DNA of 41,999 bases from Eubacteriales bacterium (lineage in GTDB: Bacteria > Bacillota > Clostridia > Oscillospirales > CAG-272): NCBI GenBank assembly GCA_045633665.1, contig JAZQYT010000088.1, positions 1 to 41,999 of the forward strand. The letters run 5' to 3'. Both the position numbers and the translations under genes were made by a program. The notes below the pieces were generated by a model. The model made no database searches. It had not been told where the DNA came from and was given only the letters and a program-made list of their open reading frames with translations. Shown here one piece after another: positions 440 through 27,218 of this stretch; the first letter of the stretch is position 1, and each line of letters starts with the position of its first letter.

Positions 440-2536
440 TTAAAGCAGCAATTCGTAGTAATAAATCGGCAAAGCGCTCCAACCGTGGCAAAGGCTTGCG
501 GCGTGTCCGAAGTCGGAAAGGCCGATGATGGTCTCCCAGAACGTGGTCGCACCGTTGCGAAGCATATGGAGATAATCCCTGTCAATTTCGTTAAGAATGA
601 CGGGTGCATACGCTTCCCTGTTGATCTTGAGCAGCGCGTCAAAGCGGAAGGAATTCATACTCAGCGTATTGGGATATACGGTATATCCGCAGTTGTCTTT
701 GCCGTTTGTGGATAAAATGCGCAGGATATTTGTCAGATCCAGTCCATCTGCTGCACCGCAAAGCAGGCAAAGCGCGTTGGTCAGAACGCTGTACTCGCCT
801 CTGCAGCGGTTTTCAAACGACTCAAACAGCTTTGTTTCGGGATTGTAAAACTCCTTGGCAATCGCGCGGTTGACACTCTGTGAAATCGCACGGTACTCCC
901 CTGCCTCTTTTGTCTTACCCAGCGCATCGCAGATCTTGGCCATATGCTGCAGCGCCAGCGAGAAAAATGCGTTCAGAGGTGCTTCCATGCTGCGATTCTG
1001 CTCAAAGAAATGCCCGTTCATACCGGGACTCCACTCGTAGAAATTCCAATATCCGCCCTCACCGTAGAAGTTTTCGATCAGGCCGCTGTCCTGCAGCTTA
1101 CCGATAAAGGTATGGATAATGGTGTCAAGCACGGGATAGCATTCCTGTGCCAACGAAATATCGCCCGTATGGCGGATATACTCTTCCATTTGAATAAAGT
1201 ACACGGTCGAGAAGGACGGAATGGGAAAATCCTTGCCCGCGGGATAGCAAAGCGTCAGAATGCCGTCGGGGCGCAGGCCCTTGGAGATCAGCTTGAGGTT
1301 TGCGCGCGGAAATTCTTTTTCACCAAACGCATAATAGCCGCACAGCATCTGATTGCGGGAGTCCATGCAGTAAAGCGCCTGCTCTCTCCAGGGGCAATCC
1401 TCATAATGCTCGTGCATACATTGAAGCAACGTGTTGACGCAAACGTCGTAGATGGTGTTTTGCAACAGATTTCCCTTTTCGAATTTCTTTGCGGTTACGG
1501 GATACAGCGTGGGGCGCAGGCCCGCATAATGCACGGTAAACTCGGACGCATGAACAAAGAACTGGATGTATCTGCAGCCAAAGCGACGGAAGGTGTGCAG
1601 GTATTGATTTCTTCCTTTTTTTGCCTTATAATCGGCAGAAAATCCACGTACGGAGGTGCGGCAGCGTCCATCCGCCAGATGCTCACCGTAGCCAATCTCG
1701 ATCGCACAGTCGTGCGGTACTTCGATGTCAAAATCTAAAAAGCCAGCCCACTCTTGTCCGAGATCCACAACAAAGAATATGCCCTGCGACTCGTCCTCAG
1801 TCTTGAAATGCACGGGCTTGTCAAAGCCGAAAAAGCCTCTCATATCCGAGATCTGCTCGGGATAGCGGTGGCGAAGCGCGGCATGCTGCATCATCTTGTC
1901 TGGACTTGTGTGCTGTTTTTCAACGTAGTCGAAAAGTCCCTGCAGGCAAAGCTGTGCAGAGGTTCTGGGCGCAAGCTCCAGCATTTTAATCGGGCGCTGC
2001 GTAAAATCTGTGGAGATCATGGGCATCAGCACGCTCGGGGCAAATCCATCCGATACGTCCTGCTCGATAAAACCGTCGTAGGTAGTGTAATCGTAATGAT
2101 AAGTATAGCCGAGCTGTCCCGAGATCAGCTGTCTTACGTGCGAGATGTAGTCACGGGAAAGGCGCGAGAGCGTATGCACATCCGAATAGCAGATGGGTGC
2201 ATCCTGCTCACACACTTCAAAAATAACGCCGGGCTCACCGTGAATATAGGTCTGCGTGTCGTCACCGTAGTACCAGACCACGATCACCAGCCTGTTTTTG
2301 CCCGCTTTGACGAATTTGGTCACGTCAACGCGGTCGCAGACCTTGTAGGTGGGATAGTCGGCATACTGTCCAAAGGCGGCCAGTTCACCGTTGAGATAGA
2401 CGGTATAGTTGGAATCGGCAGCGATGGTCAGCGTATAGGGGGCTTCGCCCGTTGCATCAAATTCCGCAACGAAATCCGCAAATTCGTCCGAAAGGATCTC
2501 CCCTGCTTTCCATATCCATTTAGCTTTCAGAAACAT
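440..2536 (-). CDS. GH78-like alpha-L-rhamnosidase family protein (six-hairpin glycosidase)
   Basis: I placed the start at MFLKAKWIWK (ATG is the rc of 2534-2536, with a GGAGGA RBS upstream) rather than at the track start 2653. The N-terminus (AKWIW...YTLTIAADSNYTVYLNGE) and the C-terminal motifs DCPWREQALYCMDSRNQ and HGWSALPIYYY are typical of bacterial rhamnosidase-type proteins. Confidence 0.7.
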   Translation of the reverse strand: MFLKAKWIWKAGEILSDEFADFVAEFDATGEAPYTLTIAADSNYTVYLNGELAAFGQYADYPTYKVCDRVDVTKFVKAGKNRLVIVVWYYGDDTQTYIHGEPGVIFEVCEQDAPICYSDVHTLSRLSRDYISHVRQLISGQLGYTYHYDYTTYDGFIEQDVSDGFAPSVLMPMISTDFTQRPIKMLELAPRTSAQLCLQGLFDYVEKQHTSPDKMMQHAALRHRYPEQISDMRGFFGFDKPVHFKTEDESQGIFFVVDLGQEWAGFLDFDIEVPHDCAIEIGYGEHLADGRCRTSVRGFSADYKAKKGRNQYLHTFRRFGCRYIQFFVHASEFTVHYAGLRPTLYPVTAKKFEKGNLLQNTIYDVCVNTLLQCMHEHYEDCPWREQALYCMDSRNQMLCGYYAFGEKEFPRANLKLISKGLRPDGILTLCYPAGKDFPIPSFSTVYFIQMEEYIRHTGDISLAQECYPVLDTIIHTFIGKLQDSGLIENFYGEGGYWNFYEWSPGMNGHFFEQNRSMEAPLNAFFSLALQHMAKICDALGKTKEAGEYRAISQSVNRAIAKEFYNPETKLFESFENRCRGEYSVLTNALCLLCGAADGLDLTNILRILSTNGKDNCGYTVYPNTLSMNSFRFDALLKINREAYAPVILNEIDRDYLHMLRNGATTFWETIIGLSDFGHAASLCHGWSALPIYYYELLL

Positions 2537-3515
2537 GATCTTCCTCCGTTTTATAAAATTTTCCTTGGTACAAATTATTTTGATATAAAATCTTATCCAC
2601 GTCGTTGACCACCGCAGTTTTTTTGCGGCTCCAATCGGGGGCAAGCAGCGCATCGGGCGCCCCGTCCCCTGTCAGACGCGCGATCACGGTATCGGGCGGC
2701 AGCAGCGTCATGGCTTTGGCAACCACTTGCGTGTAAGCCGCCTGCGTCATGGGCTCGTACTTCCCCGCATTGTAAATATCCGCCATGACCGTATCCTTGA
2801 TCACGTGCAACAGATGCAGCTTGACCTGATCGGGATGCAAGGCAGCAACGTCGCGTACGGTCTGCAGCATGGTATCCTCGTCCTCGCCCGGTAAGCCAAA
2901 GATCAGGTGGATGCACACGTGAATATCCGCACTTGCATTTCGCAGCGCGTCATACCCCGCAACAAATGCCGCAAAATTGTGTCCGCGATTGATCAGGGCT
3001 GCGGTCTGATCGTTTGAGCTTTGCAAGCCAAGCTCAACTGTCAGATAGGTGCGCTTGGCAAGCTCGGCAAGATACGCCACCACGTCGGGCTCCAGGCAAT
3101 CGGCACGCGTGGCAATATTCAGCCCCACAACACCGGGGTATGCAAGTCCCTGCTCGTACTTTTCGCGCAGCACGTAAAGAGGCGCGTAGGAGTTTGTGTG
3201 CGCCTGGAACTACGGAATGACCTTATCCGTCTTCCATTTGCCGCTGATGAGTGCGTGAGATCTTTGCATCTGCTCCAAAATCGGCACGTCGGGCGGCGGG
3301 GCGAAATCACCGCTTCCCTTGTCCGAGCAGTAAATGCAGCCGCCATGCGCGCATTTGCCGTCAATATTGGGACAGGTAAAGCCCGCATCAATGGGCAATT
3401 TAGCCACCTTGCCGCCAAAGGTGTTTTTGAGAAAATAGTCGTAGGTATAATAGCGTTTGTTTGTGTCGCTGTAAAGATACGGGTTGGTCGAGGCCTGCGT
3501 GACCTTTTTGCTCAT
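2520..3515 (-). pseudogene. TIGR01212-family radical SAM protein (YhcC/YtqA-like) interrupted by one in-frame TAG at 3210-3212
   Basis: Track ORFs 3210..3524 and 2520..3173 are in the same frame. Hand translation across the gap gives ...KTDKVIP*FQAHTNSYAPLYVLREKYE. The radical-SAM cluster motif CPNIDGKCAHGGCIYC is present. The likely start is the ATG that is the rc of 3513-3515, after GAGGTG. The 3' end overlaps the rhamnosidase start by 17 nt. Confidence 0.75.
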
Positions 3516-3541
3516 GCATCTCACCTCACTTTCTTGCTTTT

Positions 3542-3570
3542 ATTATACAGACAAATTTCGCAGATGTCAA
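3542..3570 (-). promoter_or_regulatory. sigma-70-type promoter for the radical SAM gene
   Basis: The minus strand reads TTGACA (rc of 3565-3570), an exact 17-nt spacer, then TATAAT (rc of 3542-3547). It lies about 25 nt upstream of the RBS. Confidence 0.7.
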
Positions 3571-3584
3571 GAAAAAACGAAAAT

Positions 3585-3615
3585 CCCCCGAGCCATGATT
3601 GCATAGCTCGGGGGG
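3585..3615 (-). terminator. rho-independent terminator (bidirectional shape) closing the cassette islet
   Basis: The stem is CCCCCGAGC (3585-3593) paired with GCTCGGGGG (3606-3614). A and T runs flank it on both sides; on the minus strand it is followed by attttcgttttttc. Confidence 0.65.
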
Positions 3616-3629
3616 AAAATTATTTTTTC

Positions 3630-3734
3630 GTGTTGCGCGTAACGGGGGACAGGCCCTTGTTACACCGCAATATCGTTTTTTGTGTTGCGTTTGGGCAGCC
3701 TCGCGGCGTAACAATGCTCCGTCCCCGGTTACAT
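3630..3734. repeat. composite hairpin repeat, copy A (H2 and H3 modules only)
   Basis: gtgttgcgcgtaacgggggacaggcccttgttacaccg (3630-3667) is identical to 4559-4596. ggcgtaacaatgctccgtccccggttacat (3705-3734) matches 4633-4662 and 5603-5630. Confidence 0.85.
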
Positions 3735-3919
3735 GTCATTCCAAGCCAAATTGACCGCCATAGCGGTTAATTTGAAAAGAATTGCGCAATTGGTAGAGGA
3801 CAAATCCTCTCCTTTTGATGCCATTTTTGAAACCCTTTCTTTTTTGCTCCTGATTCCTCTTAATTCTCGCCATCTTTCTCGTATCACAGAATGATTTATA
3901 CCCTTTTTTCAGTGGTCTC

Positions 3920-3938
3920 GAACCGTCCCCTGTTACAT
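3920..3938. repeat. inverted half-copy of the H1 module (gaaccgtcccctgttacat)
   Basis: It is the exact reverse complement (19 of 19) of 4501-4519, atgtaacaggggacggttc. Confidence 0.85.
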
Positions 3939-3991
3939 TGTTTAATAAAACACACCAAACTCAACTCGATTTTAGGTTTCCAAACAATCGA

Positions 3992-4414
3992 CTATCCCCC
4001 CGCATGTGCTCCATAGCCATTCATATTTACATTTTCTACAGAGTCGTATTTATCGAAAGTTATAACCACTGCATAAAACCGAGCATCGCTTATTTCGCGA
4101 GTTTTATAATAACCCACATTGTCTCGATATACGTCAAATTCCCCATATTTTTCAACAATTTCTTGTTTGGTGTGGTCTTTGATCCACTCTTCATCGTATT
4201 TCAAATGTACATACACATTATTCGCGGTTTGTGTAACGATTTCACCAGCAGCAATAACCGGAAAAACAATCATTTCAAATACTTTTTCAGACAGTCCAAA
4301 AGGGTTGAAAACATAGACGAAAAGCAAACATCCAAATAATTGAAACAGTGCTAATAGAACAGCTAATATCCTCACCCATTTCTTCTTTTGTTTTATTTGA
4401 GAGAATGTCTCCAT
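3992..4414 (-). CDS. small membrane-anchored hypothetical protein
   Basis: A 140-aa ORF with RBS GGAAGGAGA upstream of the ATG. It has an N-terminal TM segment (WVRILAVLLALFQLFGCLLFVYVF). The sequence is AT-rich and it ends in TAG. I recognise no family. Confidence 0.6.
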   Translation of the reverse strand: METFSQIKQKKKWVRILAVLLALFQLFGCLLFVYVFNPFGLSEKVFEMIVFPVIAAGEIVTQTANNVYVHLKYDEEWIKDHTKQEIVEKYGEFDVYRDNVGYYKTREISDARFYAVVITFDKYDSVENVNMNGYGAHAGG

Positions 4415-4499
4415 TTATTCATCTCCTTCCACGTTTTCCGTTTTCAATTGTTTCAATTAAGATCAGTTTGATCTGCATATTCTCATATAGGTTCTCTAC

Positions 4500-4662
4500 C
4501 ATGTAACAGGGGACGGTTCTCTGTTACATGAATTTCCCTTATATTATAAGGGTATTACGTGTTGCGCGTAACGGGGGACAGGCCCTTGTTACACCGCTCG
4601 ATCGGTTTTTGTGTCGTGTTCGGTTGACGCGCGGCGTAACAATGCTCCGTACCCGGTTGCAT
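4500..4662. repeat. composite hairpin repeat, copy B (H1, palindrome, H2, H3)
   Basis: H1 is catgtaacag-gggacggttct-ctgttacatg (4500-4530), a perfect 10-bp stem. The palindrome CCCTTATAtTATAAGGG is at 4536-4552. H2 is 4559-4596 and H3 is 4633-4662. The last base overlaps the stop codon of the upstream ORF. Confidence 0.85.
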
Positions 4663-5408
4663 TATTCTTCCAGGCAAAGACAGCATTGATCTTCTACTTG
4701 CTTTATAAGAGCAGAAAGCTCATCGCTGCAACGCACATACGCATCTGAGGATTTCCATCGGGTATCTGTACGGATTTCAATGACGTAATCCTGATCTGCT
4801 TTACAAACGTATCCGGTCCATACCAGATTCTCGTATCCTTCCAATCGAAATTCAATATGTAAGTACTGTCGGGATGGATCATTCGGTTCTTCGTAGTATA
4901 AACGATCGGGACCGGTTTTATAGGCACGCAGTTGTTCATTGGTCAGATATTGTCTGTTTTTTGCAATCAAAGCATTAGCAACCTCTTTTGCTATTTTCTC
5001 ATCTATGGCACATAATACCTGTGTTCCGGAGTTTTCACCAACATCCAGCCAAAACTCATCATTCTCTTGATCACACACAAAGCCGGTCCTTAACGTTAAT
5101 TGTGCCGTAGAGGCGTCCAATGAATACACTCCACCTTTATCCTGATGCATTAAAACAACCGGACAATACCAGTATTCTCCGACGTAGCCTACATAGCATC
5201 TTAAAGCAATAAAATCCTTGTCGGAAATACTGGCAATACTGTAATAGTCATTCAGTTTACTGTCCCTTAAAACACGGTCTCCTTTTTCCCAGATCACATT
5301 ATAGTCAAATGCTGCATATTCTGATATTTTTCTTTTCGTCATGTAACACCCACAAAAGCAAGGCAACAAGATGCAAACAATTGCAAACATTGCTATATAC
5401 TTTTTCAT
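4662..5408 (-). CDS. hypothetical lipoprotein
   Basis: A 248-aa ORF with RBS AAAGGAGA upstream. It has a signal or lipobox-like N-terminus (MKKYIAMFAIVCILLPCFCGC). The sequence is AT-rich. I recognise no family. Confidence 0.65.
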   Translation of the reverse strand: MKKYIAMFAIVCILLPCFCGCYMTKRKISEYAAFDYNVIWEKGDRVLRDSKLNDYYSIASISDKDFIALRCYVGYVGEYWYCPVVLMHQDKGGVYSLDASTAQLTLRTGFVCDQENDEFWLDVGENSGTQVLCAIDEKIAKEVANALIAKNRQYLTNEQLRAYKTGPDRLYYEEPNDPSRQYLHIEFRLEGYENLVWTGYVCKADQDYVIEIRTDTRWKSSDAYVRCSDELSALIKQVEDQCCLCLEE

Positions 5409-5468
5409 CAGTTATCTCCTTTCAGGAAACTTATAATATCATCCACCTCATCTTTTACAATTTCATCA

Positions 5469-5630
5469 GTGTAACAGGGGACGGTTCTCTGTTACATGAT
5501 TATCCCTTATATTATAAGGGATTTACGTGTTGCGCGTAACGGATGGGACAGGCCCTTGTTACACCGTATGATCGATTTTTGTGTCGTGTACGGGCGTGTC
5601 GTGGCGTAACAATGCTCCGTCCCCGGTTAC
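5469..5630. repeat. composite hairpin repeat, copy C (H1, palindrome, H2, H3)
   Basis: It has the same module order as copy B: H1 5469-5498, palindrome 5504-5520, H2 5527-5566 (2-nt insertion, ggatggga versus ggggga) and H3 5603-5630. Confidence 0.85.
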
Positions 5631-5695
5631 GCGCGTTCCCCGAACGCCTTGGAAAAATATGACGCTTTTTGTGGAATGATTTTTGACAAGCAAGC

Positions 5696-5727
5696 GTGTA
5701 ACTGCGGGGACGGCTCCCATGTTATGT
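5696..5727. repeat. degenerate H1-like module
   Basis: gtgtaactgcggggacggctcccatgttatg keeps the GTAAC-N-GGGGACGG core and a GTTAT arm. A further fragment, tgtgtaacagg, lies at about 5811-5822. Confidence 0.5.
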
Positions 5728-5769
5728 TGCGAAGGCCGAAGGTCGTAGCATTCCCCATATCTTTTTTTC

Positions 5770-5798
5770 ATTATATCATGACAGGAGTATATTGTCAA
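5770..5798 (-). promoter_or_regulatory. consensus sigma-70-type promoter firing into repeat copy C and the cassette genes
   Basis: The minus strand reads TTGACA (rc of 5793-5798), a 17-nt spacer (atatactcctgtcatga), then TATAAT (rc of 5770-5775). Confidence 0.65.
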
Positions 5799-6000
5799 GA
5801 TTTTCATATATGTGTAACAGGTGCGTCAATCCAATTTCACACACGCATGTCTATTCCAATATGCTATTCATAATATTCTCCTCCTTTCTGTTTTTTCAGG
5901 ATTATTCCCCTATAATTTTTCCGTCATATATATAAAGAGCAAAATTTCCATTTTTTCTTCAAAAAAGCAAAAATATTTTTGTAAACTAATTATGAACAAC

Positions 6001-6039: not shown

Positions 6040-6708
6040 TTATTCCTTGGGATGAATGCTATCTATAATCTTCAATATTTCTTCTTCAGAAAGAAATGAC
6101 CTGTCGTATATATACAAGGCATATTTTCCATCTGTCCACGTGTATGATACACTGGTTTCATGTCTCACACACAATATCTTGCATCCCTTATGATTTATGA
6201 TACTGTAATCGCTATATTCCGCGTCATATTGAATACAAATATTCAAATTATATTGTGCAAAGGTTAGTGTTTCTTCATTTTCGTTCATCCACCGATAAAA
6301 TATATCACCGGAGTTATATCGCTCTCGAATTAATTCATACCCCTCGGGTATATAGCCAACTTCATAAATCTCGGTGATATCCGGTGAGACTTGATCCTCG
6401 GTAAAGTCTAAAATGATATATTTCTCAAAGACCTGTATAAACAACTCCCTGATCTTTTCTCGGTTTGCGTATACGGTCAGTGAGCCAATGGCCAAGGCGG
6501 CTGCCAACAGCAACGCTGCGATCACGACCTTGCGCGTGGAACGTTTATTGATTGATCTTACGTCAACGCCCAATATTTCGCTCATTTTTTCCATATGCGC
6601 GTCCGAGCAGCGCACCTGAGCTTTGCAAGCGGAGATCTCGCGTTCATAGCGCTCGCTGACGCCCTGTATGATGGCGCGTTTGAGTAAAGCGGCTTGATCC
6701 TGCATCAT
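6040..6708 (-). CDS. membrane-anchored putative anti-sigma factor (DUF4367-like C-terminal domain)
   Basis: A 222-aa ORF whose start overlaps the sigma gene stop (ATGA at 6705-6708). It has one TM segment (VVIAALLLAAALAIGSLTVYA) after a roughly 60-aa cytoplasmic part. The extracytoplasmic domain resembles DUF4367 partners of Firmicutes sigma factors. Confidence 0.6.
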   Translation of the reverse strand: MMQDQAALLKRAIIQGVSERYEREISACKAQVRCSDAHMEKMSEILGVDVRSINKRSTRKVVIAALLLAAALAIGSLTVYANREKIRELFIQVFEKYIILDFTEDQVSPDITEIYEVGYIPEGYELIRERYNSGDIFYRWMNENEETLTFAQYNLNICIQYDAEYSDYSIINHKGCKILCVRHETSVSYTWTDGKYALYIYDRSFLSEEEILKIIDSIHPKE

Positions 6709-7262
6709 GATTCCTCCTTTGCCAATATTTCGATCAGCTTTTGCTTGCCGCGGCGCAGGCGCGTATATACCGTGCCGACGGGCAGCCCCATAAGCTTGGC
6801 AGCTTGATCAGCCGTCAGTCCCTCTGCATAGCACAAAAGCAACACCGTGCTGTATTTCGGATCCATATCACGTATGGCTGCCACGACCTCTGCATACCGT
6901 TCGCGGATATGGATTCTCTCAGCAAAATCCTGCATGCTTTCCATATCTGGATAGTCCATATCCTGCTGGCCGGGCAGCTCTTTTTCGGATAGTATCTTGC
7001 TGATCTCGTTATGTAAAATGGCAAAAACGTACGCCTTGACTTCCCTTTCCGATTTTCCAAAGGGTACGGCATGCGCATAACGTACGATGCAAAGAAACGT
7101 GCTTTGCACGGCATCCTCGGCATCCAGCCCGGGATTGTTTCGCTCGGCTGCAGAAAACGCCTTTATTGCCATTCGCAGCATTTTTTGATGATAGCGCTTG
7201 AATAATTGCTCAATCTGCGGGCGATACTGTTCGTCCGCAATCGTCATCAAAAACGTAAGCAT
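6705..7262 (-). CDS. RNA polymerase sigma factor, sigma-70 family (ECF-like, regions 2 and 4)
   Basis: A 185-aa ORF. The region-4 HTH reads LLLCYAEGLTADQAAKLMGLPVGTVYTRLRRGKQKL. RBS AAGGAGGGA lies upstream. Confidence 0.8.
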   Translation of the reverse strand: MLTFLMTIADEQYRPQIEQLFKRYHQKMLRMAIKAFSAAERNNPGLDAEDAVQSTFLCIVRYAHAVPFGKSEREVKAYVFAILHNEISKILSEKELPGQQDMDYPDMESMQDFAERIHIRERYAEVVAAIRDMDPKYSTVLLLCYAEGLTADQAAKLMGLPVGTVYTRLRRGKQKLIEILAKEES

Positions 7263-16598: not shown

Positions 16599-18176
16599 TT
16601 ATTCGTACATTTCAATCCTATTATTCTCTGTCATAACCATGCCATCCGTACAATAGATGGCAATTCCCTTTCTGATAGCACCCGATGCTACATCGATCTC
16701 CAGCCACTCTGCAACCGTTCCTTCATAATTCACTCTCCATAAAGAGGTACCGGGAACCAATGCATTGCTTTCGATCGATTTTATGCTGGTCGGGATGGTT
16801 ACACTTGTGAGCCATTCGCATCCGTAAAACGCGTGACTTGGCAGCACTTCGATTGGTTGTCCAAGTACAATATCACAGCCGATGCCACTCTCTCTGAAAG
16901 CTGAAGCTCCGAGCTTTGTGATCACGGTAAGCCCTTCGATCTTGTCAAGATTCGAGCATTTTCTGAACGCTGCCGCTCTGATTTCGGTCATGCTTTCACA
17001 TACTATGACACTGTTTAAGGATGTACAACCGTCAAACATGCTTTCTGCCACACGTTCAAGCGCTCCGAGCTCCGCCTTTATAAGCTCAGTACAGCCTTCG
17101 AATATACCCGAACCCACGTCTTCTACGTTGTTCGTAAACTTTACCGATCTCATGTCCGTGCAAGTCGCAAAAGCCTCGTCCCCAATGCTTGTAACAGTTT
17201 GTGCAATCGTTACGTTTCGAATGGTACTGCATCCGTAAAACGCTCTTTTGCCGATCACGGCAATCCCGTCAAGCTCGACCTTTTTCAGCGAGGTGCAGCC
17301 ATGGCACATGGATTCGGGGATCTCTGTAATAGCAGACGGCAGCGTGATCTTTTCGAGTGCGGTGCATTCGGAAAAGGCAAACGCACCGATCTTGGTGACT
17401 GAGTCCGGCACGGCAACGCTGATCAATGCGCTTTGCTGCGCGAACGCATTTGCATCAATGCTCGTCACGGCAATACCGTCATACTCCGCAGGGATTTCAA
17501 GCTCCGATTCTTGATAATTGTCCGTTGTCCCGACTACCGCAAACGTACCGTTCTCATAGCGAAGAACAAGTCCTAACGGCTCCACGGTCACATTCTGTCC
17601 CTCTGCATAACCATCGGTGGAATTCGTTTCAATCTGCGATTCGCTTTCCTCATCCGATTTAACGTCGGTCTCTGTCTCTGTAGACATCTCATCAATAATG
17701 GCGTCGATCTCTTGCTTATGATCAAGATAATATTGGTACATACGTGCAAGCAAATCACCAAGATCTTGCTTCATATTGCTAAAAAGTCCATCTGTATCTG
17801 TCTGCATCTGATCAATGACCGAATCCTCTGTTCCCGCACCGAGGGCAATGAAAACACTTTCGGTAAGCGGCCATTGTACCCAGTTGAGCTGCAACTTTTC
17901 TTGTGTATCGGAATCTTCCGCATCATCCAAGGGGAACAGGATCTGATCAATGGCTTCTGCAACGTAACTGTCGATCGCTTCGCGATTTTGATAGTATCCT
18001 ACGGGAAGTGCTACGAGCAGCAAGGTAAAGACAAGCGTGATACACGCAGCGCTGACCAATACCGTGCGAAGGCTCTTTTTTCGCTTGCGAAGCAAAAACG
18101 ATTCATATCTGTCATACTGCTCTAAATATTTCACGTCGATCAGGGAGATTGCATCTATCATCAAATCTTTATTCAT
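16599..18176 (-). CDS. module 1 membrane protein: short cytoplasmic N-terminus, one TM, conserved juxtamembrane domain, acidic linker, BspA-type LRR (LRR_5-like) ectodomain
   Basis: A 525-aa ORF. RKRKKSLR precedes the TM segment VLVSAACITLVFTLLLVAL. Repeats of the type IPDSVTKIGAFAFSECTALEKITLP follow. The start overlaps the sigma stop (ATGA at 18173-18176). Confidence 0.8.
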   Translation of the reverse strand: MNKDLMIDAISLIDVKYLEQYDRYESFLLRKRKKSLRTVLVSAACITLVFTLLLVALPVGYYQNREAIDSYVAEAIDQILFPLDDAEDSDTQEKLQLNWVQWPLTESVFIALGAGTEDSVIDQMQTDTDGLFSNMKQDLGDLLARMYQYYLDHKQEIDAIIDEMSTETETDVKSDEESESQIETNSTDGYAEGQNVTVEPLGLVLRYENGTFAVVGTTDNYQESELEIPAEYDGIAVTSIDANAFAQQSALISVAVPDSVTKIGAFAFSECTALEKITLPSAITEIPESMCHGCTSLKKVELDGIAVIGKRAFYGCSTIRNVTIAQTVTSIGDEAFATCTDMRSVKFTNNVEDVGSGIFEGCTELIKAELGALERVAESMFDGCTSLNSVIVCESMTEIRAAAFRKCSNLDKIEGLTVITKLGASAFRESGIGCDIVLGQPIEVLPSHAFYGCEWLTSVTIPTSIKSIESNALVPGTSLWRVNYEGTVAEWLEIDVASGAIRKGIAIYCTDGMVMTENNRIEMYE

Positions 18177-18757
18177 ACCGTAAAGCCCTCCTCTTCCAGC
18201 TTTTGGCGCAGCGTTTTTCTGATGTAGGAAATGGCTCTGTTGATCTTTGAACGATGCACATGTAGGATCTGCGCGATATCACCGATACCCTTACCGTAAT
18301 AAAAGCGGCTTATAAAGACGTAACGGTGCATCTCGTCAAGGCTGTCCAGATACTGTTCAATGATTTCCGCAAGTCTTAGAGTATCACTTTGCGCATACCC
18401 CTGCCCCTCTTCGCTGATAATCTCTTCAAGATCACTCAAAGAGATTGCCTGACTTACCCCTTCTCTTTTTTGGCTGTGCTTGTTTCTGTACAAGAGCAGA
18501 GAATGCCTTCTGATAATGGTGGATAAAAATGCCTTGAGATAATCGGGACGATGTGGGGGCATAGAGTTCCATGCAGATACGTAGGTATCGTTCAGGCATT
18601 CCTCACTGTCCGGTTCATTTTGCAAAATGTTTTTTGCTACTGTCAACAAGTATGCACGATATTTGCGATCTGTGTGTTTGATGGCATCTTCATTACGCGC
18701 CCAATAGAGATCAATGATCTCTGAATCACTGATCGCTTTCGTATTTTGATATTGCAT
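18173..18757 (-). CDS. module 1 ECF-like sigma-70 family sigma factor
   Basis: I placed the start at MQYQNTKAIS (ATG is the rc of 18755-18757, 7 nt after AAGGAGG). The region-2-like segment is DSEECLNDTYVSAWNSMPPHRP. The region-4 HTH is GIGDIAQILHVHRSKINRAISYIRKTL. Confidence 0.8.
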   Translation of the reverse strand: MQYQNTKAISDSEIIDLYWARNEDAIKHTDRKYRAYLLTVAKNILQNEPDSEECLNDTYVSAWNSMPPHRPDYLKAFLSTIIRRHSLLLYRNKHSQKREGVSQAISLSDLEEIISEEGQGYAQSDTLRLAEIIEQYLDSLDEMHRYVFISRFYYGKGIGDIAQILHVHRSKINRAISYIRKTLRQKLEEEGFTV

Positions 18758-18778
18758 ACGTGACCTCCTTTCTGTCAT

Positions 18779-18815
18779 TTCACCTATATAGATACATTTT
18801 TTTGCAAAATGTCCG
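18779..18815 (-). promoter_or_regulatory. module 1 candidate ECF-type promoter
   Basis: The minus strand reads GGAC, 16 nt, then TATCTATATAGGTGAA. It aligns with the motifs upstream of the other four module sigma genes. Confidence 0.45.
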
Positions 18816-18842
18816 CTTTTTTTGAAAAAATTTTCGATTTTA

Positions 18843-18875
18843 AAAGAGCGTCCGAACGATTGGTCAGACGCTCTT
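18843..18875 (-). terminator. rho-independent terminator after the DUF975 gene
   Basis: AAGAGCGTC (18843-18851) pairs with GACGCTCTT (18867-18875). On the minus strand it is followed by ttaaaatcgaaaatttttt. Confidence 0.6.
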
Positions 18876-18891
18876 TCTTATATTACTTGAA

Positions 18892-19704
18892 TCAGTATGA
18901 TTGCGTATCGTTTTCCGTTGACTGCTCGGGCTGTCCCGTAAATACAGACTCGGGATCGAACGCACAGGCATATACGTCGGACACGGGGCGCGTGCCGGAA
19001 AGCTCTCTGTAAAAATCAGCACGTGCGGCACTCTTATAAGGAATCAGCCAAATGTCACCGATGCCGCAGGTCAGCGAGCTCAGAATGTTCCATCCGATAA
19101 AGCTGAAGTCCAGGCAGAACAGGTTCCAACGGTAACCGCGCATCATTTCCTTGGAGCGCGTAATGGCTTCGTTAGGCCCTATCGTGGGATCATCCGCAAG
19201 TATGTACGGTACCATGGCATAGCTGTAACTTGCAATAATACCCGGAATGAAGCACAGAAGTGACCACAAAAATATGTATAAAGTTTCCAGCAATCCTGTA
19301 AGGCCGATGTTTTTCCATGCATGAAAATACTTGAACAAGGTGACAAGATCAGGCTTTTTACCGTCGATGAGATCCATGTTAAAGCACGCATATCCTGTTC
19401 TGATGATCGACGAGAAGAAACGCCAGGCAAGTGCCCATACCAATGCAATGGCAAATACGACGATGAATACACCTCCAATGATCGCCAAAAGCATCATCGT
19501 TTCCTCATCCAATTCTCCGGGTACCACTTCAGTCGTTCCCTCTTCGGTAGTCTCTCCAAAGTTAATTCTTGGCTGTCCGACCGTACTGCCTACGGTAGTT
19601 GCGCCAAGCAAGGAGGCAATCAAGCCTGCAAGGATCGCCCAGCCCCACTGTCCACTCAGAGCATTTCTTGCTGCCGCTCTGAAATCAGCTGCTCTTTTAA
19701 TCAT
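18892..19704 (-). CDS. DUF975-family integral membrane protein
   Basis: I placed the start at MIKRAADFRAAARNALSGQWGWAILAGLIASLL (ATG is the rc of 19702-19704, 5 nt after GGAGG). It is polytopic, and the N-terminal pattern is typical of DUF975. Confidence 0.65.
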   Translation of the reverse strand: MIKRAADFRAAARNALSGQWGWAILAGLIASLLGATTVGSTVGQPRINFGETTEEGTTEVVPGELDEETMMLLAIIGGVFIVVFAIALVWALAWRFFSSIIRTGYACFNMDLIDGKKPDLVTLFKYFHAWKNIGLTGLLETLYIFLWSLLCFIPGIIASYSYAMVPYILADDPTIGPNEAITRSKEMMRGYRWNLFCLDFSFIGWNILSSLTCGIGDIWLIPYKSAARADFYRELSGTRPVSDVYACAFDPESVFTGQPEQSTENDTQSY

Positions 19705-19910
19705 ATAAACCTCCATGCCGCCTTCGGCGGCTCAAATATTGATGGAAACTTCACCGCGGAGCTTTTCTCCAAAAATGGGCCGGGCCCATTTTTCGGTGAA
19801 GTTTAAGCGTGAATGGTTGAGTATAAAGGAATATTGCGTGAACTTTCACGCTATTCTCCTTTCAAGGGCTTTACGTAGTGTACGCCCAAATATATTTCTT
19901 GCTTGATATG
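19705..19910 (-). promoter_or_regulatory. about 200-nt structured 5' leader with an internal terminator-like hairpin (candidate attenuator or riboswitch)
   Basis: On the minus strand there is a nested stem, cttcaccg...cggtgaag, enclosing AAAAATGGGCC-CG-GGCCCATTTTT (+ strand 19770-19794). Further stems are gcgtgaaagttcacgc, gggc...gccc and gccgccgaaggcggc, the last directly before the RBS. Confidence 0.4.
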
Positions 19911-19939
19911 ATTATATCACGTTTTCCCACTTTTTGCAA
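19911..19939 (-). promoter_or_regulatory. sigma-70-type promoter of the DUF975 leader
   Basis: The minus strand reads TTGCAA (19934-19939), a 17-nt spacer, then TATAAT (rc of 19911-19916). Confidence 0.55.
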
Positions 19940-19944
19940 TACTT

Positions 19945-21432
19945 TTATTCAATAATGATCTGTCCATCAACGCATTGGATGATGATGCCCCTTTCAATGC
20001 CGTGTTCGGATATACGAACGCTTTCCCACTCTGCAACCGCACCGCGAAATTCTATGATCTCGAGCACATTGTTATCAATGAATGCAGCGTCTGCAATTTC
20101 TTTGAGCGTATTGGGCAAGGATACGCTTGTCAGATTCCCGCAGGCTGAAAACGCATAGATACCGATCCTTTCAACGCCGTCAGGCACGGTCAGAGAGGAA
20201 ATGCCCGTGTTGTAAAAGCTTTGCGGTTCAATCTCGGTAATCCCTTTCGGAAATGCCAGATCGTAATTCGAAAGCGTACCTCTGAATGCTTCCGAGCCGA
20301 TAAACTCCATGCTTTCGGGCAATTTTCCCAACTTCAATTCATAGCATTCAAAGAAAGCGTGCGTATCAATCTTTTTGACGCTTTCGGGGATATTGACACT
20401 CTGCAGCGCGACACATCCAAAGAATGCAAAGGATCCTATGATCTCCAAGCCACTTGGCAGTTCAATGCTCTGCAGCGATTGACACTTGAGGAATACGCTG
20501 TCGTTGATCACTTTCAGATTTACGGGAAGCTGCTTGACATAGGTTAGCGAAGAACAGTACGCAAACGCACTCGATCCGATCGTTTCCACGCTGTCCGGGA
20601 TCACGACCTCAACGATCTGATCACAGTACGAAAAAGCGTAATTTTCAATCGCCTTGACAGGCAGTCCTTTGAAAGTTTCCGGAATGTTCAGAACGGTTTC
20701 TTGCGTGTTCGCAAGGCTGATGACTGTGTAATAGCTCTCGTCCTCGCTGAGCGCCAGAATAAAGGTGCCGTCAGATTCGGTCACGTGAGTCGATGAGTCG
20801 TCCTCGGTGATCTGTTCAGTTCCGTGATCCGGCAGCGTCTCGACTTCGGTCTCTATTTCAGTTTGGGTTTCCCTGTCGGTTTCGGTTTCAATTTCGCTCT
20901 CGGTTTCGCTTTCACTTTCCGATTCACGTTCGTCTATGACACCTTCGATATCGTCCTTGTGATCCAAATAATACTGATAAAGTCGTTCCAGAAACGCGCC
21001 GAGGCTTTGCAATAGTTCACCGGCAAGGCCGCTGTGATCCCCTTGCATAAAATCAATCGCAGAATCCTGCGTGCCTGCACCGAGCGCTTCAAAGAATTTT
21101 GCTGCGAGGGGCATCTTTGTCCAATCCAAAAGCAATTCTTCTTTTGCAATATCGCTATCCTGCTCCTTATCCAGCGGAAACAGCACGCGATCCACCGCCT
21201 GTACGAATGCGTTATCAACAGCCTCGCGGTTGGTAATATACACGATGGGCAGCGATGCAACAAGCAAGGTAAATGTCAGCAAAAGCGCGGCTGCCGCAAC
21301 CAGCGTGCGTTTGATCCACTTCCGTTTCTGCCTGTGCAATCTTTTCTGCAAGGCGCGTTCGGTCTGCTCAAAATCTGCAAGATAGGCGTGGTCAATGTAA
21401 CCGACCGCCTCGATCAAAAATTCCTTTGTCAT
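19945..21432 (-). CDS. module 2 membrane protein with BspA-type LRR ectodomain
   Basis: A 495-aa ORF with the same architecture as module 1. The TM segment is LVAAAALLLTFTLLVASLPIVYI and the acidic linker is SESESETESEIETETDRETQTEIETEVE. There is an ATGA overlap at 21429-21432. Confidence 0.8.
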   Translation of the reverse strand: MTKEFLIEAVGYIDHAYLADFEQTERALQKRLHRQKRKWIKRTLVAAAALLLTFTLLVASLPIVYITNREAVDNAFVQAVDRVLFPLDKEQDSDIAKEELLLDWTKMPLAAKFFEALGAGTQDSAIDFMQGDHSGLAGELLQSLGAFLERLYQYYLDHKDDIEGVIDERESESESETESEIETETDRETQTEIETEVETLPDHGTEQITEDDSSTHVTESDGTFILALSEDESYYTVISLANTQETVLNIPETFKGLPVKAIENYAFSYCDQIVEVVIPDSVETIGSSAFAYCSSLTYVKQLPVNLKVINDSVFLKCQSLQSIELPSGLEIIGSFAFFGCVALQSVNIPESVKKIDTHAFFECYELKLGKLPESMEFIGSEAFRGTLSNYDLAFPKGITEIEPQSFYNTGISSLTVPDGVERIGIYAFSACGNLTSVSLPNTLKEIADAAFIDNNVLEIIEFRGAVAEWESVRISEHGIERGIIIQCVDGQIIIE

Positions 21433-22010
21433 ATCGAATAGCCCTCCCTTGCAAGATATTCGCGCAAGGACTGCTTGATCAGTGCGATCTCGCGATTGAC
21501 CGTGCCGCGGCTGACGCCGAGCATGGTGGCGATCTGCTCAATGGGACGCGCATAAAAATAGCGGCTGATGAAAATGTAACGCCTCCGGTCATCCAGCGCG
21601 GCAAGATACGCGTCAAGCACCTTGCCAAGCACGCGGGCGCGCTCCTCGGTTTCATCCGAGGCATCGGTCACAGCATAATCCGAAAGGTCGTCAAATGACA
21701 CGGAAAGCGATTGCGGTACCGACTTTTGCGTATGATGGCTGCGGTAAACGTCAATGGCCTTGCGGCGCATGATGGCACAAAGAAATGCGGGCAGCACCTG
21801 CGGACGGTGCGGCGGCATGGAATTCCATGCACCGACGTATGTGTCGTTCAGGCATTCCTCGCGGTCTTGCAGATCGGAAAGAATCCCTTTGACCACCGTG
21901 AGCAGATACGTGCGATATTTCAGATCTGTATACTCTATCGCTTGCTCGTCCCGCGCCCAATACAAATCAATGATGGTCGTATCGTCAGGGATGAAGGTTT
22001 GGTTTTGCAT
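21429..22010 (-). CDS. module 2 ECF-like sigma factor
   Basis: I placed the start at MQNQTFIPDD (ATG is the rc of 22008-22010, 8 nt after AAGGAG). It is a paralog of the module 1 sigma (IIDLYWARDEQAIEYTDLKYRTYLL...EECLNDTYVGAWNSMPPHRP). Confidence 0.8.
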   Translation of the reverse strand: MQNQTFIPDDTTIIDLYWARDEQAIEYTDLKYRTYLLTVVKGILSDLQDREECLNDTYVGAWNSMPPHRPQVLPAFLCAIMRRKAIDVYRSHHTQKSVPQSLSVSFDDLSDYAVTDASDETEERARVLGKVLDAYLAALDDRRRYIFISRYFYARPIEQIATMLGVSRGTVNREIALIKQSLREYLAREGYSI

Positions 22011-22033
22011 GCTTTTCACTCCTTTTTGTATCC

Positions 22034-22070
22034 TTCACCCTTTATGTCGTAATATTTTTCAAAAAGTACC
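22034..22070 (-). promoter_or_regulatory. module 2 candidate ECF-type promoter
   Basis: The minus strand reads GGTAC, 16 nt, then CGACATAAAGGGTGAA. Confidence 0.45.
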
Positions 22071-22109
22071 ACGATTTCAGAAATTTTTTTAATAATTTTC
22101 AAGCAACAC

Positions 22110-22135
22110 CGACCGGGCGTTATTTCACCCGGTCG
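22110..22135 (-). terminator. terminator-like hairpin after the module 3 LRR gene
   Basis: CGACCGGG (22110-22117) pairs with CCCGGTCG (22128-22135). The T-tract that follows on the minus strand is only modest. Confidence 0.45.
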
Positions 22136-22144
22136 ACTGCGCGT

Positions 22145-24406
22145 TTATTTTGCCGTGATCTCACCGTCTGAGCAAACGATGATCACGCCTTGCGGTATAT
22201 TGGCATATTTCGTATTGACCTGCTCCCATTGCGAGACGCTACCCTTATAGTATATATGCGTCAAGGATTCGCAATAGGTAAAGGATGAAGAGCCGATCTT
22301 TGTCACGCTTGTGGGAATGGTGACGGTGATCAGGTTGCTTGCCACGTTGAAGGCTTGTCTTGCCAGCTCCACGACCGTGTCCGGGATCTCACAATGCTCA
22401 ATGCCCGTTTGTGAATAAAAGCCGTTGGGCAGCACTCTCAGCTGCGTGGAATAGGTCACCTGCTTCAAAGCGGTGCAACCGCTGAATACGCTGTCCCCTA
22501 TACGTATAAGCGATTCGGGCAGCGCAACGCGCTCAAGCGATGTGCAGCCCAAGAAGGCTAAATCTCCAAGGAAATCAAGACCTTCGGGAATGATGATCTC
22601 TGCAAGCAACGCGCAATTTCCAAATGCCTGAGATCCTATGGTTTGTATGCCGCTGCCGAGTATCACGCTCTGCAGGCCTGAGCCGCTGAACGCTTTTCCT
22701 CCGATGGATTGCAACGAAGACGGTGCATCAAGACGCTCAAGGCTTGCGCAATTCATAAAGGCACTCTCTTCGATCTTTTTCACACCCTCTTCAAGGCGAA
22801 GCTGCGTCAAGGAGGTGCATCCGGAAAAAGCAGCATTTGAGATCACCTCAACGTTCCCGGGAACGCTCAGTGTATGCATTGCCGTGCATTCGGAAAAAGC
22901 GTAGCTGCCGAGCTGTTCAAGGTGTGGCGGCAAGGTAACGGATTGCAGCGAGATGCAGCCGGCAAAAGCAGAGTCATCGATCAGAGCAAGACTTTCGGGA
23001 AGCTCTATTTGCGCAAGATCCGTGCAATCCTTAAAGGCAAATGCTCCGATCTCCGTGATGCTATCTGGCAGATTGACCTGCTTTAAGGGCCAGCAGCCCT
23101 GGAAAGTCCCCTCTTCAATGCGGGACAGCGATGCAGGGATCGTAACGCTCGCAAGTCCCTTACAATCGCAGAATGCATATTTACCGATCCCGATAAGCGT
23201 ATCGGGCAGGTCGATCGTATTGAGAGATACGCACTTATAAAACGCATATTCACCGATCAAATTTAACCCGGACGGCATCTTGAAGCTGTCCAGCTTCTGG
23301 CAGTTATAAAATGCATTTTTTTCGATTGCCGTAACGGTTTCGGGCAAAATCACGGTTTCCAGTTTCAAGCAATTATTGAAGAAACGCTCGGGAAGAACCG
23401 GGATAGGGCTTTCAATGCACACGTACGTAAGGCTGTCAGCACCGTCAAAAATCATATTTCCAAGCTCGGTGCAGGACGCTGGGATGATGATCTCGGTCAG
23501 CGAGGTACATGCACGGAAAGCGCTTGTTCCGATTTGGATCACGCCTTCGGGAATGGTGATCTCCGAAAGCGAGCTGCATTTGGAGAACGCTTCAACACCA
23601 ATCGTTTCCAGACCTTCTGCAAGCGTGACGCGTTCAAGGGACGTACATTCAATAAAGGCTTGATCTCCGATAATTTTGATCCCTTCGTGAAGCACCACTT
23701 CCTTAATGCCCGTGCAACCCATAAAAGCACCCTGATATATGCCCGTGACCGGCAGACCTTTATAGGTTGTGGGAATGATGATGACCTCATCCGTACACTC
23801 GTTGAGATCGGATACGAGATAAGAGTTGTTGTAATAATCCTTCTGATATCTCAGTCCCCTGCTGCCGTCCACCTCGTAGTCGGGCTCTGTTTCGGTTTGG
23901 TCGGACTCGGTATCCTCGTCCTCCTGATCCGTGATCAGATCGTTGTGATCCAGATAGTATTGATACATGCGGTCAAGGAATGCGCCAATGCTTTGCATAG
24001 CGTCCCCTGCAAGGCCGCCTTGCGCGTTTTGCATCATGTCGGCAAACGAATGCTCACCACCCATGCCAAGCAGATCAAATATCTGTTCGGTAACCGGCCA
24101 CTTGATCCAGCTATGCTGCAGCTCCTCCTGATCGATCTCTGCGTCCTCGCGATCAAGCGGAAACAGCACGCGATCCACTATCGGGGTAAGCGCTTGGTTG
24201 ATCGCCTCGTGATTGACGATATAGATAAGCGGCAGCGATGCTACAAGCAAGGTGAAGGTCAAAAGCAGACAAGCGGCTGCGAGCAGCAGTTTGCCCCATG
24301 CGGGCATTTTGCGCTTGTGCGTCAAGCGGTATTCGGTACGGGTATAGCTTTCCAAAATGTCAACGTCGATCATGCCAAGAGCATCTACAAACATATCTTG
24401 CGTCAT
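22145..24406 (-). CDS. module 3 membrane protein with expanded BspA-type LRR ectodomain
   Basis: A 753-aa ORF with the same N-terminal architecture. The LRR region is roughly twice as long as in the other modules. There is an ATGA overlap at 24403-24406. Confidence 0.8.
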   Translation of the reverse strand: MTQDMFVDALGMIDVDILESYTRTEYRLTHKRKMPAWGKLLLAAACLLLTFTLLVASLPLIYIVNHEAINQALTPIVDRVLFPLDREDAEIDQEELQHSWIKWPVTEQIFDLLGMGGEHSFADMMQNAQGGLAGDAMQSIGAFLDRMYQYYLDHNDLITDQEDEDTESDQTETEPDYEVDGSRGLRYQKDYYNNSYLVSDLNECTDEVIIIPTTYKGLPVTGIYQGAFMGCTGIKEVVLHEGIKIIGDQAFIECTSLERVTLAEGLETIGVEAFSKCSSLSEITIPEGVIQIGTSAFRACTSLTEIIIPASCTELGNMIFDGADSLTYVCIESPIPVLPERFFNNCLKLETVILPETVTAIEKNAFYNCQKLDSFKMPSGLNLIGEYAFYKCVSLNTIDLPDTLIGIGKYAFCDCKGLASVTIPASLSRIEEGTFQGCWPLKQVNLPDSITEIGAFAFKDCTDLAQIELPESLALIDDSAFAGCISLQSVTLPPHLEQLGSYAFSECTAMHTLSVPGNVEVISNAAFSGCTSLTQLRLEEGVKKIEESAFMNCASLERLDAPSSLQSIGGKAFSGSGLQSVILGSGIQTIGSQAFGNCALLAEIIIPEGLDFLGDLAFLGCTSLERVALPESLIRIGDSVFSGCTALKQVTYSTQLRVLPNGFYSQTGIEHCEIPDTVVELARQAFNVASNLITVTIPTSVTKIGSSSFTYCESLTHIYYKGSVSQWEQVNTKYANIPQGVIIVCSDGEITAK

Positions 24407-24984
24407 ACGATATACCCCTCCTTTGCAAGCGTTGCTCGGAGTGATTGCTTGATGGCAGCAATTTCTTTATTGATCGTCGAACGGCTACAGGAAAGCTCTT
24501 CCGAGATCTGCTCGATGGGCTTTGCGTAATAATAACGGCTGATAAAAATGTAGCTTTGGCGCTCGGACAGCGTGCGCAGCCAGCTGCTGATGATCTGCGA
24601 TAGTTCTGCGGTTTCTTGCCAAGTATACTGGCTCTCGCTATCCGGGATAAAATCCTCAAAGTCGGTCAAAGAAAAGGTTGTGCCTATGCTTCTCTTTTGT
24701 CTGTGCTTATTTCTGTATCTGGTAATGGCGATCTTGCGCATGATAGAGCCAAGAAAGGTCTGCAGCACGCTCGGACGGTGCGGCGGGATAGCATTCCAGG
24801 TACCAACGTACGTATCGTTCAGGCATTCCTCGCTATCCTGCATATCGTTCAGGATATTCTGCGAGATGCTGATCAGATATTTTCGATATTTGACGTCGGT
24901 TGCCTTGATGGCCTCCTCGTCGCGTGCCCAGTAAAGCGCGATGATCTCGTCATCACTACGCACACTTACGAATCGATCTTGCAT
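24403..24984 (-). CDS. module 3 ECF-like sigma factor
   Basis: A 193-aa ORF with AAAGGAGAG upstream. It is a paralog of the other module sigma factors (IIALYWARDEEAIKATDVKYRKYLI...EECLNDTYVGTWNAIPPHRP). Confidence 0.8.
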   Translation of the reverse strand: MQDRFVSVRSDDEIIALYWARDEEAIKATDVKYRKYLISISQNILNDMQDSEECLNDTYVGTWNAIPPHRPSVLQTFLGSIMRKIAITRYRNKHRQKRSIGTTFSLTDFEDFIPDSESQYTWQETAELSQIISSWLRTLSERQSYIFISRYYYAKPIEQISEELSCSRSTINKEIAAIKQSLRATLAKEGYIV

Positions 24985-25017
24985 TGTTTGCTCTCCTTTA
25001 CGGTTTAGATATTTGCT

Positions 25018-25054
25018 TTCGTAAGTATAGTCGCCAAAAGCGGGAAAAAGTGTA
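25018..25054 (-). promoter_or_regulatory. module 3 candidate ECF-type promoter
   Basis: The minus strand reads TTACAC, 16 nt, then CGACTATACTTACGAA. Confidence 0.4.
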
Positions 25055-25122
25055 ATACTTTTTTCAAATATTCACGTTCTGACTATATTTTACCACAAAT
25101 CCGAAATATTGCAAGAGGATAA

Positions 25123-25152
25123 ATAAGGCAGCGACCAAAATCGCTGCCTTAT
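25123..25152 (-). terminator. rho-independent terminator after the module 4 LRR gene
   Basis: ATAAGGCAGCG pairs with CGCTGCCTTAT. On the minus strand it is followed by ttatcctctt. Confidence 0.6.
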
Positions 25153-25156
25153 GTGA

Positions 25157-27138: not shown

Positions 27139-27160
27139 ATGCGACCTCCTTCTTGTTAGC

Positions 27161-27198: not shown

Positions 27199-27218
27199 AA
27201 TAATTTTATTTTTTTGAA

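Follow-up and report, generated by a model that had tools for sequence, protein, structure and literature searches.

A hairpin repeat family of uncultured gut Clostridia, most probably the REP/BIME-like repeats of a tyrosine transposase

Repeats of the repetitive extragenic palindrome (REP) and bacterial interspersed mosaic element (BIME) type are known chiefly from Proteobacteria. Here we analyse structured repeats in a 41,999-nucleotide stretch of DNA from a Eubacteriales bacterium (GenBank assembly GCA_045633665.1, contig JAZQYT010000088.1, positions 1 to 41,999; hereafter the window), where they crowd into one islet of small genes, and we propose that they are most probably the REP/BIME-like family of a REP-associated tyrosine transposase (RAYT) resembling subclass 2.1 / group 1 (TIRYT), a placing to which the motif, the length of the protein and the host point. 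RAYT-like genes of the TIRYT type were described by Di Nocera et al. (2013); the inverted repeats on either side of them have GGGGWSAS in common and sometimes belong to moderately abundant families (PMC3733652). Quentin et al. (2018) equate TIRYT with their own subclass 2.1, near whose genes they identified no REP-like sequences, and map it to group 1 of Bertels et al. (2017) (PMC6006769; PMC5581495); group 1 is present in Clostridia and is the most insertion sequence (IS)-like of the RAYT groups (PMC5581495). The repeats of the window form a previously undescribed sequence family, which joins the REP-RAYT / TIRtron (GGGGWSAS) kind; its 13-mers gave only chance matches, in eukaryote papers, when run against searchable papers, and the family itself was absent from them.

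As in TIRtrons, the RAYT-like protein has a long C-terminal extension and is of a group that has been reported from Clostridia, the inverted repeats around its gene carry GGGGWSAS (exactly in unit type H2, GGGGACAG; at 7 of 8 positions in H1, GGGGACGG) and the repeats are moderately abundant, in dimers or clusters; unlike those of TIRtrons, the repeats here are true covarying hairpins, beyond terminal inverted repeats. In common with the REP/BIME sequences of Escherichia coli and the REPIN (REP doublet forming hairpin)-RAYT systems of Pseudomonas, they are short imperfect palindromes, extragenic and multi-copy. Like BIMEs they comprise several unit types in alternating orientation, like REPINs they pair as inverted doublets into one long hairpin, and like REPtrons they accompany a Y1 HUH transposase gene with inverted units on either side, an arrangement seen in relatives, the window having a remnant of the RAYT promoter only. 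Unlike the E. coli and Pseudomonas systems, the composite, up to about 340 nt long, combines five unit types with an 8+8 palindrome, the repeats reside in uncultured gut Clostridia (with Eubacteriales, Oscillospiraceae and Lachnospiraceae labels) and the copy number appears moderate, in the tens and not the hundreds, a lower bound given fragmented metagenome-assembled genomes (MAGs). Unlike a classical REP, a unit has no 5' GTAG and its conserved determinant is the apical GGGGACGGTTC. Distinctive of the family, then, are covarying hairpins, a five-unit BIME-like composite, RAYT-deleted derivatives that bear a promoter, and an IS that targets the unit. A first-pass annotation of the window had suggested both a REP/BIME-like and an integron-like nature for the repeats, and the former suggestion is borne out by units that are dispersed, multi-copy, mostly extragenic and RAYT-associated.

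Common to all composites is a 25-nt asymmetric palindrome, GTAAC-N-GGGGACRG-N6-GTTAC, which forms an imperfect hairpin; its apical core, GGGGACRG(TTC), is conserved from unit to unit, whereas the foot varies. In the window this unit occurs six times exactly against 0.00 expected, and the looser GTAAC-N(1-5)-GGGAC nine times, every one within 3639-5711, against 0.19 expected. A relaxed scan found 10 units spanning 3639-5725 and none genuine in the remaining ~40 kb of the 42-kb window, its sole match outside the islet being an intragenic chance match with two mismatches at 2662; the earlier count of about ten cores, confined to the islet, holds. Searches for direct and inverted repeats likewise recovered the three composite copies already recognised, A, B and C (Table 1), with limits adjusted so that A begins at 3625 and C reaches 5634 and extends onward to 5725. 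The islet is indeed AT-richer, with a GC content of 0.39-0.40 over 4001-6000 against about 0.50 in its surroundings.

Three unit types make up most of the copies: H1 (GTAACAGGGGACGGTTCTCTGTTAC), H2 (GTAACGGGGGACAGGCCCTTGTTAC) and the inverted H3 (GTAACCGGGGACGGAGCATTGTTAC). The perfect 10-bp stem, CATGTAACAG/CTGTTACATG, which had been ascribed to every full copy, is present in copy B, whereas copy C has 8 perfect pairs; the 8+8 palindrome, CCCTTATATTATAAGGG, was located between H1 and H2 in both. H2 and H3 are mutually inverted and 81% complementary, and H2, spacer and H3, a module of about 100 nt with inverted arms of 32 nt, fold as a single long REPIN-like hairpin at -28 to -29 kcal/mol (z -3.4 to -4.2). 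What had been listed as a fragment at 5696-5727 is repeat-derived but not loose, as it is a fourth unit type, H4, of copy C. The H5 unit of the family consensus is missing from copy C; a partial H5-like unit past the promoter may be the remnant of a former RAYT gene's other flank, judging from its likeness to the H5 consensus.

The hairpin is real and under selection. Across the units of RAYT-flanking relatives, which were collected with a search motif looser than the core, the apical (A/G)GGGGACGGTTC is unchanged, whereas the foot pairs vary by compensatory substitution (GTAACA/TGTTAC, GGGACA/TGTCCC, CAATCA/TGATTG, AACACA/TGTGTT, CATACA/TGTATG, AGACAG/CTGTCT and others). In 110 distinct units the paired share of cells is 82.7%, which 0 of 500 shuffles reach, the shuffled value being 66.0%; changes on both sides were counted in 298 cells, compared with 124 in shuffles. 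Covariation scores 0.465, compared with 0.186 in shuffles (0.465 being again reached by 0 of 500) and 0.08-0.16 with slid partners. Ten core columns are invariant partly by construction, the extraction pattern having demanded GGGGACGGTT. G-T wobble pairs are fixed on one strand. As the foot covaries freely among relatives, GTAAC/GTTAC is therefore the foot of a stem and not a recombination core.

The family extends well beyond the window. Scanning one genome per species for the exact 25-mer, and taking each locus as an 8-kb stretch (labelled L plus a number), gave 97 stretches of DNA, mostly from gut and rumen MAGs that bear Eubacteriales, Oscillospiraceae, Lachnospiraceae, Clostridia or Coriobacteriia labels; at least 12 MAGs of Clostridia and Coriobacteriia hold 3-13 separate stretches each, and many contigs terminate at the repeat. 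H1, H2 and H3 are conserved sequence classes, since the N6 that the scan left free still fell into these three types only. The composite H1-palindrome-H2-spacer-H3 stands in more than 20 loci at 75-95% identity, and alignment of the longest copies gave a consensus of about 340 nt, in which H3 is followed by a conserved box, H4 (GTAACTGCGGGGACGGGTCCATGTTAC), a small hairpin and an inverted H5. There are thus at least five unit types, H1 to H5, in fixed order and alternating orientation, with H4-hairpin-H5 as a second doublet that, like H2-spacer-H3, makes one long REPIN-like hairpin. In gut metagenome runs that hold the islet region, the composites have 5-12 times the assembler depth of their flanks, and the outer edge of H1 is joined to a wide variety of sequences.

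Most units are extragenic by a crude gene call. In 21 cases a gene start, and in 16 a gene end, is found no more than 120 nt from the 5' side of H1, so that the tie to stops of open reading frames (ORFs) proposed from the window alone does not carry over to the other loci; the particular stop of the gene 4662..5408 does lie at the edge of copy B, its TAA at 4662-4664 being 1-2 nt from the end of that copy. Genes with units on both sides include SNF sodium symporters, M3 peptidase, GT2 glycosyltransferases, MFS, GGDEF and orphans, and this placement around ordinary genes is the behaviour of a generic extragenic repeat.

When the ORFs of the 97 loci were clustered, the sole recurrent repeat-adjacent gene apart from conserved neighbours encoded a protein of 213-280 aa with the HUH motif HVHFL and a catalytic tyrosine in the context RYIHQNP. 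This Y1 HUH gene adjoins units in four MAGs (L040, L041, L054 and L088). The L041 protein scores 80.6 bits against NCBIfam NF047646 (REP-associated tyrosine transposase; cut-off 80) and 3.6e-16 against Pfam Y1_Tnp, and its only match among solved structures, weak at an E value of 0.17, is E. coli TnpA_REP (4ER8), with which the HUH and tyrosine motifs align. A metagenome scan with the RAYT protein gave 49 loci, 33 of them with a complete gene at 40-57% identity, and inspection by eye placed a unit 45-95 nt upstream of the gene in about 25 of these 33 and an inverted unit 15-57 nt downstream in about 22. The arrangement unit, RAYT, inverted unit in the metagenome loci is the classical REPtron layout, and the L054 gene too has units on both sides. 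An IS200/IS605 pair of TnpA and TnpB had been considered for genes of ~140 aa and ~447 aa beside the repeats, which proved to be ylxM and ffh.

In L040, L041 and L088 the RAYT gene, under a similar promoter, is followed by H5-H4-H3-H2-palindrome-H1. The promoter of the window matches the RAYT promoter of L041 at 42 of 54 positions in an alignment that extends over the ribosome-binding and start region, past which the window sequence jumps to the stretch between H5 and H4. This marks copy C as a former RAYT locus that has lost the ORF and H5 by deletion while keeping the strong RAYT promoter; L081 and L075 show a cleaner form of the same deletion. That promoter, with a predicted transcription start at about 5763, together with terminators at 6028-6001 and 3614-3585, makes the islet its own minus-strand transcription unit, in the order promoter, copy C, 248-aa gene, copy B, 140-aa gene, split H1, IS remnant, copy A, terminator. 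A conserved box, TATAGGTGAAGGGGCA, follows an AT-rich stretch and goes with the RAYT-type promoter (L041 ~2330, L088 ~5790, L098 ~5900, L100 ~5625); in L098 and L100 it stands just 5' of unit-free homologues of the 248-aa gene. An extracytoplasmic function (ECF)-sigma promoter, with TGTAAC as an approximate -35 box, was set aside because by inspection its spacing to any CGTC does not fit.

Several observations weigh against assigning the repeats to a RAYT. tblastn finds no RAYT gene in the 42-kb window, so any enzyme at work in this genome would be encoded elsewhere. The closest relatives, L040, L041 and L088, carry units downstream of the RAYT gene only, which sets them apart from TIRtrons as well. 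The NF047646 score is barely above its cut-off and the structural match is weak; the classical REP tag GTAG is absent, the foot being GTAAC here and variable in relatives; and 10 units in 2.1 kb with none in the other 40 kb is a tighter clustering than that of textbook REPs. To our knowledge, mobility or cleavage has been demonstrated for no RAYT of subclass 2.1 / group 1.

We propose a model of the islet that rests on these comparisons. If it works as E. coli TnpA_REP and IS200/IS605 do, a RAYT whose gene lies at another place in the genome would bind the folded single-stranded unit and would cut and rejoin beside it, copying units to new extragenic sites. The retained RAYT promoter reads through the composites and the two small genes to the terminator at 3585-3614, and in the resulting RNA the units may stand as intercistronic hairpins. 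Clustered units would make a hot spot of rearrangement, by homologous exchange and by the targeting of an IS1182-like element, and the neighbouring small AT-rich genes would therefore differ between relatives. On this model the 25-nt hairpin with the core GGGGACGGTTC is a concrete candidate substrate for a RAYT like those of subclass 2.1 / group 1, the RAYT group that is largest and also least understood, and REP/BIME-type repeats would also structure the genomes of abundant uncultured gut Clostridia, where they break assemblies, draw an IS and flag islets in which genes for small secreted or membrane proteins are hypervariable.

The gene content between the repeats is variable, as the cassette idea had anticipated. 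The MAG closest to the window, JAZUSJ, is the source of L041, and L018, another of its contigs, matches the window at 92.6% identity over 4.5 kb; this homology stops at H1 of copy B and returns at 5748, with a different gene, of 303 aa, and truncated repeats in the gap. Among the collected loci, the ends of homology blocks lie very often 0-50 nt from a unit. A recurrent locus runs from SDR through a RAYT, or a deleted RAYT with its composite, and 0-4 small co-oriented lipoprotein or membrane genes separated by units, to ylxM-ffh, and its gene sets differ between genomes. Genes of 285 aa and 130 aa likewise have different neighbours in different genomes, and homologues of the 248-aa gene occupy at least five distinct chromosomal loci, three with units on both sides and two (L098 and L100) without any. 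As a rule a variable segment has just one of its ends at a unit, and this is so for an insertion/deletion between L007 and L059 that can be read base by base. We read the variable content as hot-spot behaviour and not as cassette recombination, because L007/L059 has a single unit boundary, the IS targets units and composites offer homology for exchange.

A bolder account of the same facts, which we consider unlikely, makes of RAYT, promoter and composite a counterpart of the integron that works by HUH single-strand chemistry, with the HUH enzyme cutting out unit-bounded genes for small surface proteins as single-stranded DNA, reinserting them and so shuffling them among a few chromosomal hot spots, of which the known ones lie upstream of ylxM-ffh and between aminotransferase and radical-SAM genes; the platform promoter would drive their expression. 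It would draw on the series of RAYT or deleted RAYT with promoter, composite, 0-4 genes and ylxM-ffh (L041, L081, L058, L060 and L061), on homology-block ends within 0-50 nt of units, on the five or more loci of the 248-aa gene and on the exchanged neighbours of the 285-aa and 130-aa genes. Yet the readable insertion/deletion has one unit boundary only, L098 and L100 carry the 248-aa homologue without units, ordinary genes are separated by units just as the small ones are, and an IS that targets the unit core is a mundane source of unit-adjacent rearrangement. Moreover, no circular junction or empty site was found in Logan contigs, which are too short for excision junctions.

More improbable still is that the units are primarily cis-regulatory, either as leader or intercistronic hairpins in RNA or as sites for a regulator, with the link to RAYT secondary. 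The composites do lie within a transcription unit under a perfect promoter, H1 is often 15-40 nt 5' of a ribosome-binding site, the G-T wobbles are fixed on one strand and one metatranscriptome contig spans 3622-4503. Against this, units take either orientation to genes and stand beside gene ends too, both strands fold about equally stably as DNA, and the Rfam 15 covariance models that the first-pass annotation had recommended gave no gathering-score match in the window and, in a permissive scan of 3400-6000, only chance-level ones, so that no family match was obtained. Units that flank the RAYT gene across relatives of 40-57% identity are what is predicted of a transposase substrate, not of a leader.

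That the composites are attC-type sites, the small genes cassettes and the integrase encoded outside the window has very little probability left. The resemblance is plain enough: small orphan genes that run in one direction with structured imperfect palindromes between them, a strong promoter on one side of the array, one gene end that adjoins a repeat, relatives that differ in gene content, and, as in attC, sites that are probably used as folded single strands. In attC sites the boxes are 5-6 nt apart. Here they are 15 nt apart, GCGTAAC and GTTACGC are each one position off RYYYAAC and GTTRRRY, and, unlike the R''/R' cores of integrons, GTAAC/GTTAC is not conserved in relatives, where complementary feet replace it and covary as a plain stem. 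Units are as frequent at gene starts (21) as at gene ends (16) and flank housekeeping genes genome-wide, and the enzyme whose gene accompanies them, a RAYT, is an HUH transposase. A tblastn search with IntI1, which is a weak test, gave no tyrosine recombinase in the window or in the repeat-bearing Clostridia loci, its sole match being in L069, a lone unit in Selenomonas. Genome-wide extragenic spread and the lack of attC-type features thus count against cassettes, as the first-pass annotation had reckoned they would, while the identical gene content that it had looked for alongside them was not found. Such arrays should not be annotated as integrons. Finally, a miniature inverted-repeat transposable element (MITE) derived from a DDE insertion sequence, with H2 and H3 as its terminal inverted repeats, would suit the ~100-nt module with its 32-nt inverted arms and the association of an IS1182-like element with the units, but it is the least credible of all, given that this IS has unrelated ends of its own (GARACCACTGAAAAA), enters units, duplicating 9 bp, and does not have them as its borders, that the modules are found singly and in many combinations, and that no IS with H2/H3 ends was seen among 154 loci.

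IS1397 and ISKpn1 are insertion sequences that target enterobacterial REPs. The islet holds a comparable case, in that an element enters the repeat unit at one fixed position, while differing from IS1397 and ISKpn1, which are of the IS3 family, in being of the IS1182/IS5 type with a DDE transposase. Positions 3735-3941 are the 3' end of this element, of which ~190 bp survive in the window; the plus-strand ORF there matches the C-terminus of a 531-aa transposase of L106 with DUF772 and DDE_Tnp_1_6 domains. In L106 the element (1020-2727) sits within a unit 3' of a RAYT gene, has perfect ends, GAAACCACTGAAAAAG, and is flanked by an intact 9-bp target duplication, GAACCGTCC. The IS ends are unrelated to the repeat units. 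An identical junction of IS and unit is found in L132 (~1851), L018 (~3944) and the window (3905-3928), and the piece at 3920-3938, rightly taken as repeat-derived, is therefore half of an H1, the right half of a unit split by the IS, and not a stray fragment. The element thus appears to be repeat-targeting, with one fixed position in the unit core. The 45-codon minus-strand ORF reported beside copy A is spurious, the coding remnant being the C-terminal end of the IS transposase on the plus strand.

Table 1. Repeat copies, genes and signals of the islet, in window coordinates
Feature	Position	Strand	Details
Copy A, REPIN-like doublet only	3625..3734	+	H2 3639-3663, 44-nt spacer, inverted H3 3708-3732
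Copy B	4500..4662	+	H1 4500-4530, palindrome 4536-4552, H2 4568-4592, spacer, degenerate inverted H3 4636-4660
Copy C, fullest copy, first part	5469..5725	+	H1 5471-5495, palindrome 5504-5520, H2 5536-5562 (2-nt insertion)
Copy C, second part	5469..5725	+	inverted H3 5606-5630, conserved box GCGTTCCCCGAACGC 5633-5647, H4 5698-5725
Partial H5-like unit GTGTAACAGGTGC, past the promoter	5814..5826	+	compared with the H5 consensus
Perfect sigma-70 promoter, TTGACA-17-TATAAT, TG before -10	5770..5798	-	reads into copy C and the islet genes
248-aa lipoprotein-like orphan	4662..5408	-	8 matching protein clusters in 5.8 billion sequences
140-aa protein, N-terminal membrane helix, no Pfam family	3992..4414	-	conserved in the syntenic relative L018
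H1 half-unit GAACCGTCCCCTGTTACAT	3920..3941	-	IS inserted in the unit core
IS terminal inverted repeat GAGACCACTGAAAAA (minus-strand reading)	3905..3919	-	comparison with the L106 element
3' remnant of IS1182/IS5-like DDE transposase gene (..SFQAKLTAIAVNLKRIA..)	3733..3894	+	cut off at H3 of copy A
Intrinsic terminator hairpin, 13 pairs then T-run	3585..3614	-	closes the minus-strand transcription unit of the islet

Exact look-up of the 140-aa and 248-aa islet proteins found neither on record. Outside the gut MAGs, genomes of Sphingomonas (L009, L034, L036, L038, L053, L067 and L076) and of Bacillus salacetis (L031 and L035) each carry the 25-nt pattern a single time, at a syntenic site. The Sphingomonas copies are embedded in a much longer palindrome, and tblastn found no RAYT in the 8-kb stretches of either group. 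A half-unit with a fixed non-complementary tail, GGGGACGGTTAGYGTGAAAACCAGCCCC, recurs in L061 (5726), L079 (5667), L096 (4152), L111 (2869) and L147 (1205) and may mark where another element joins the unit.

Elsewhere in the window, a second perfect TTGACA-17-TATAAT promoter lies at 3542-3570 on the minus strand, directly 5' of a TIGR01212-like radical-SAM gene. An in-frame TAG at 3210-3212 (minus strand; ..KVIP*FQAHTNSY..) divides that gene into ORFs 3210-3524 and 2520-3173; contigs of two other samples have A, not C, at position 3210, which restores TAT (Tyr), and the stop is therefore either strain-specific or a sequencing error. The non-coding stretch 19702-19862, 5' of a minus-strand gene at 18892-19716, is ~90% identical to intergenic DNA of L030 and L037 from other MAGs; it holds small hairpins, has no Rfam match at gathering score and may be a conserved leader. 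Over 16599-29281, on the minus strand, five successive pairs of ORFs of ~193-202 aa and 467-753 aa have 4-nt overlaps; in size they resemble the ECF sigma / DUF4367 pair at 6040-7262.

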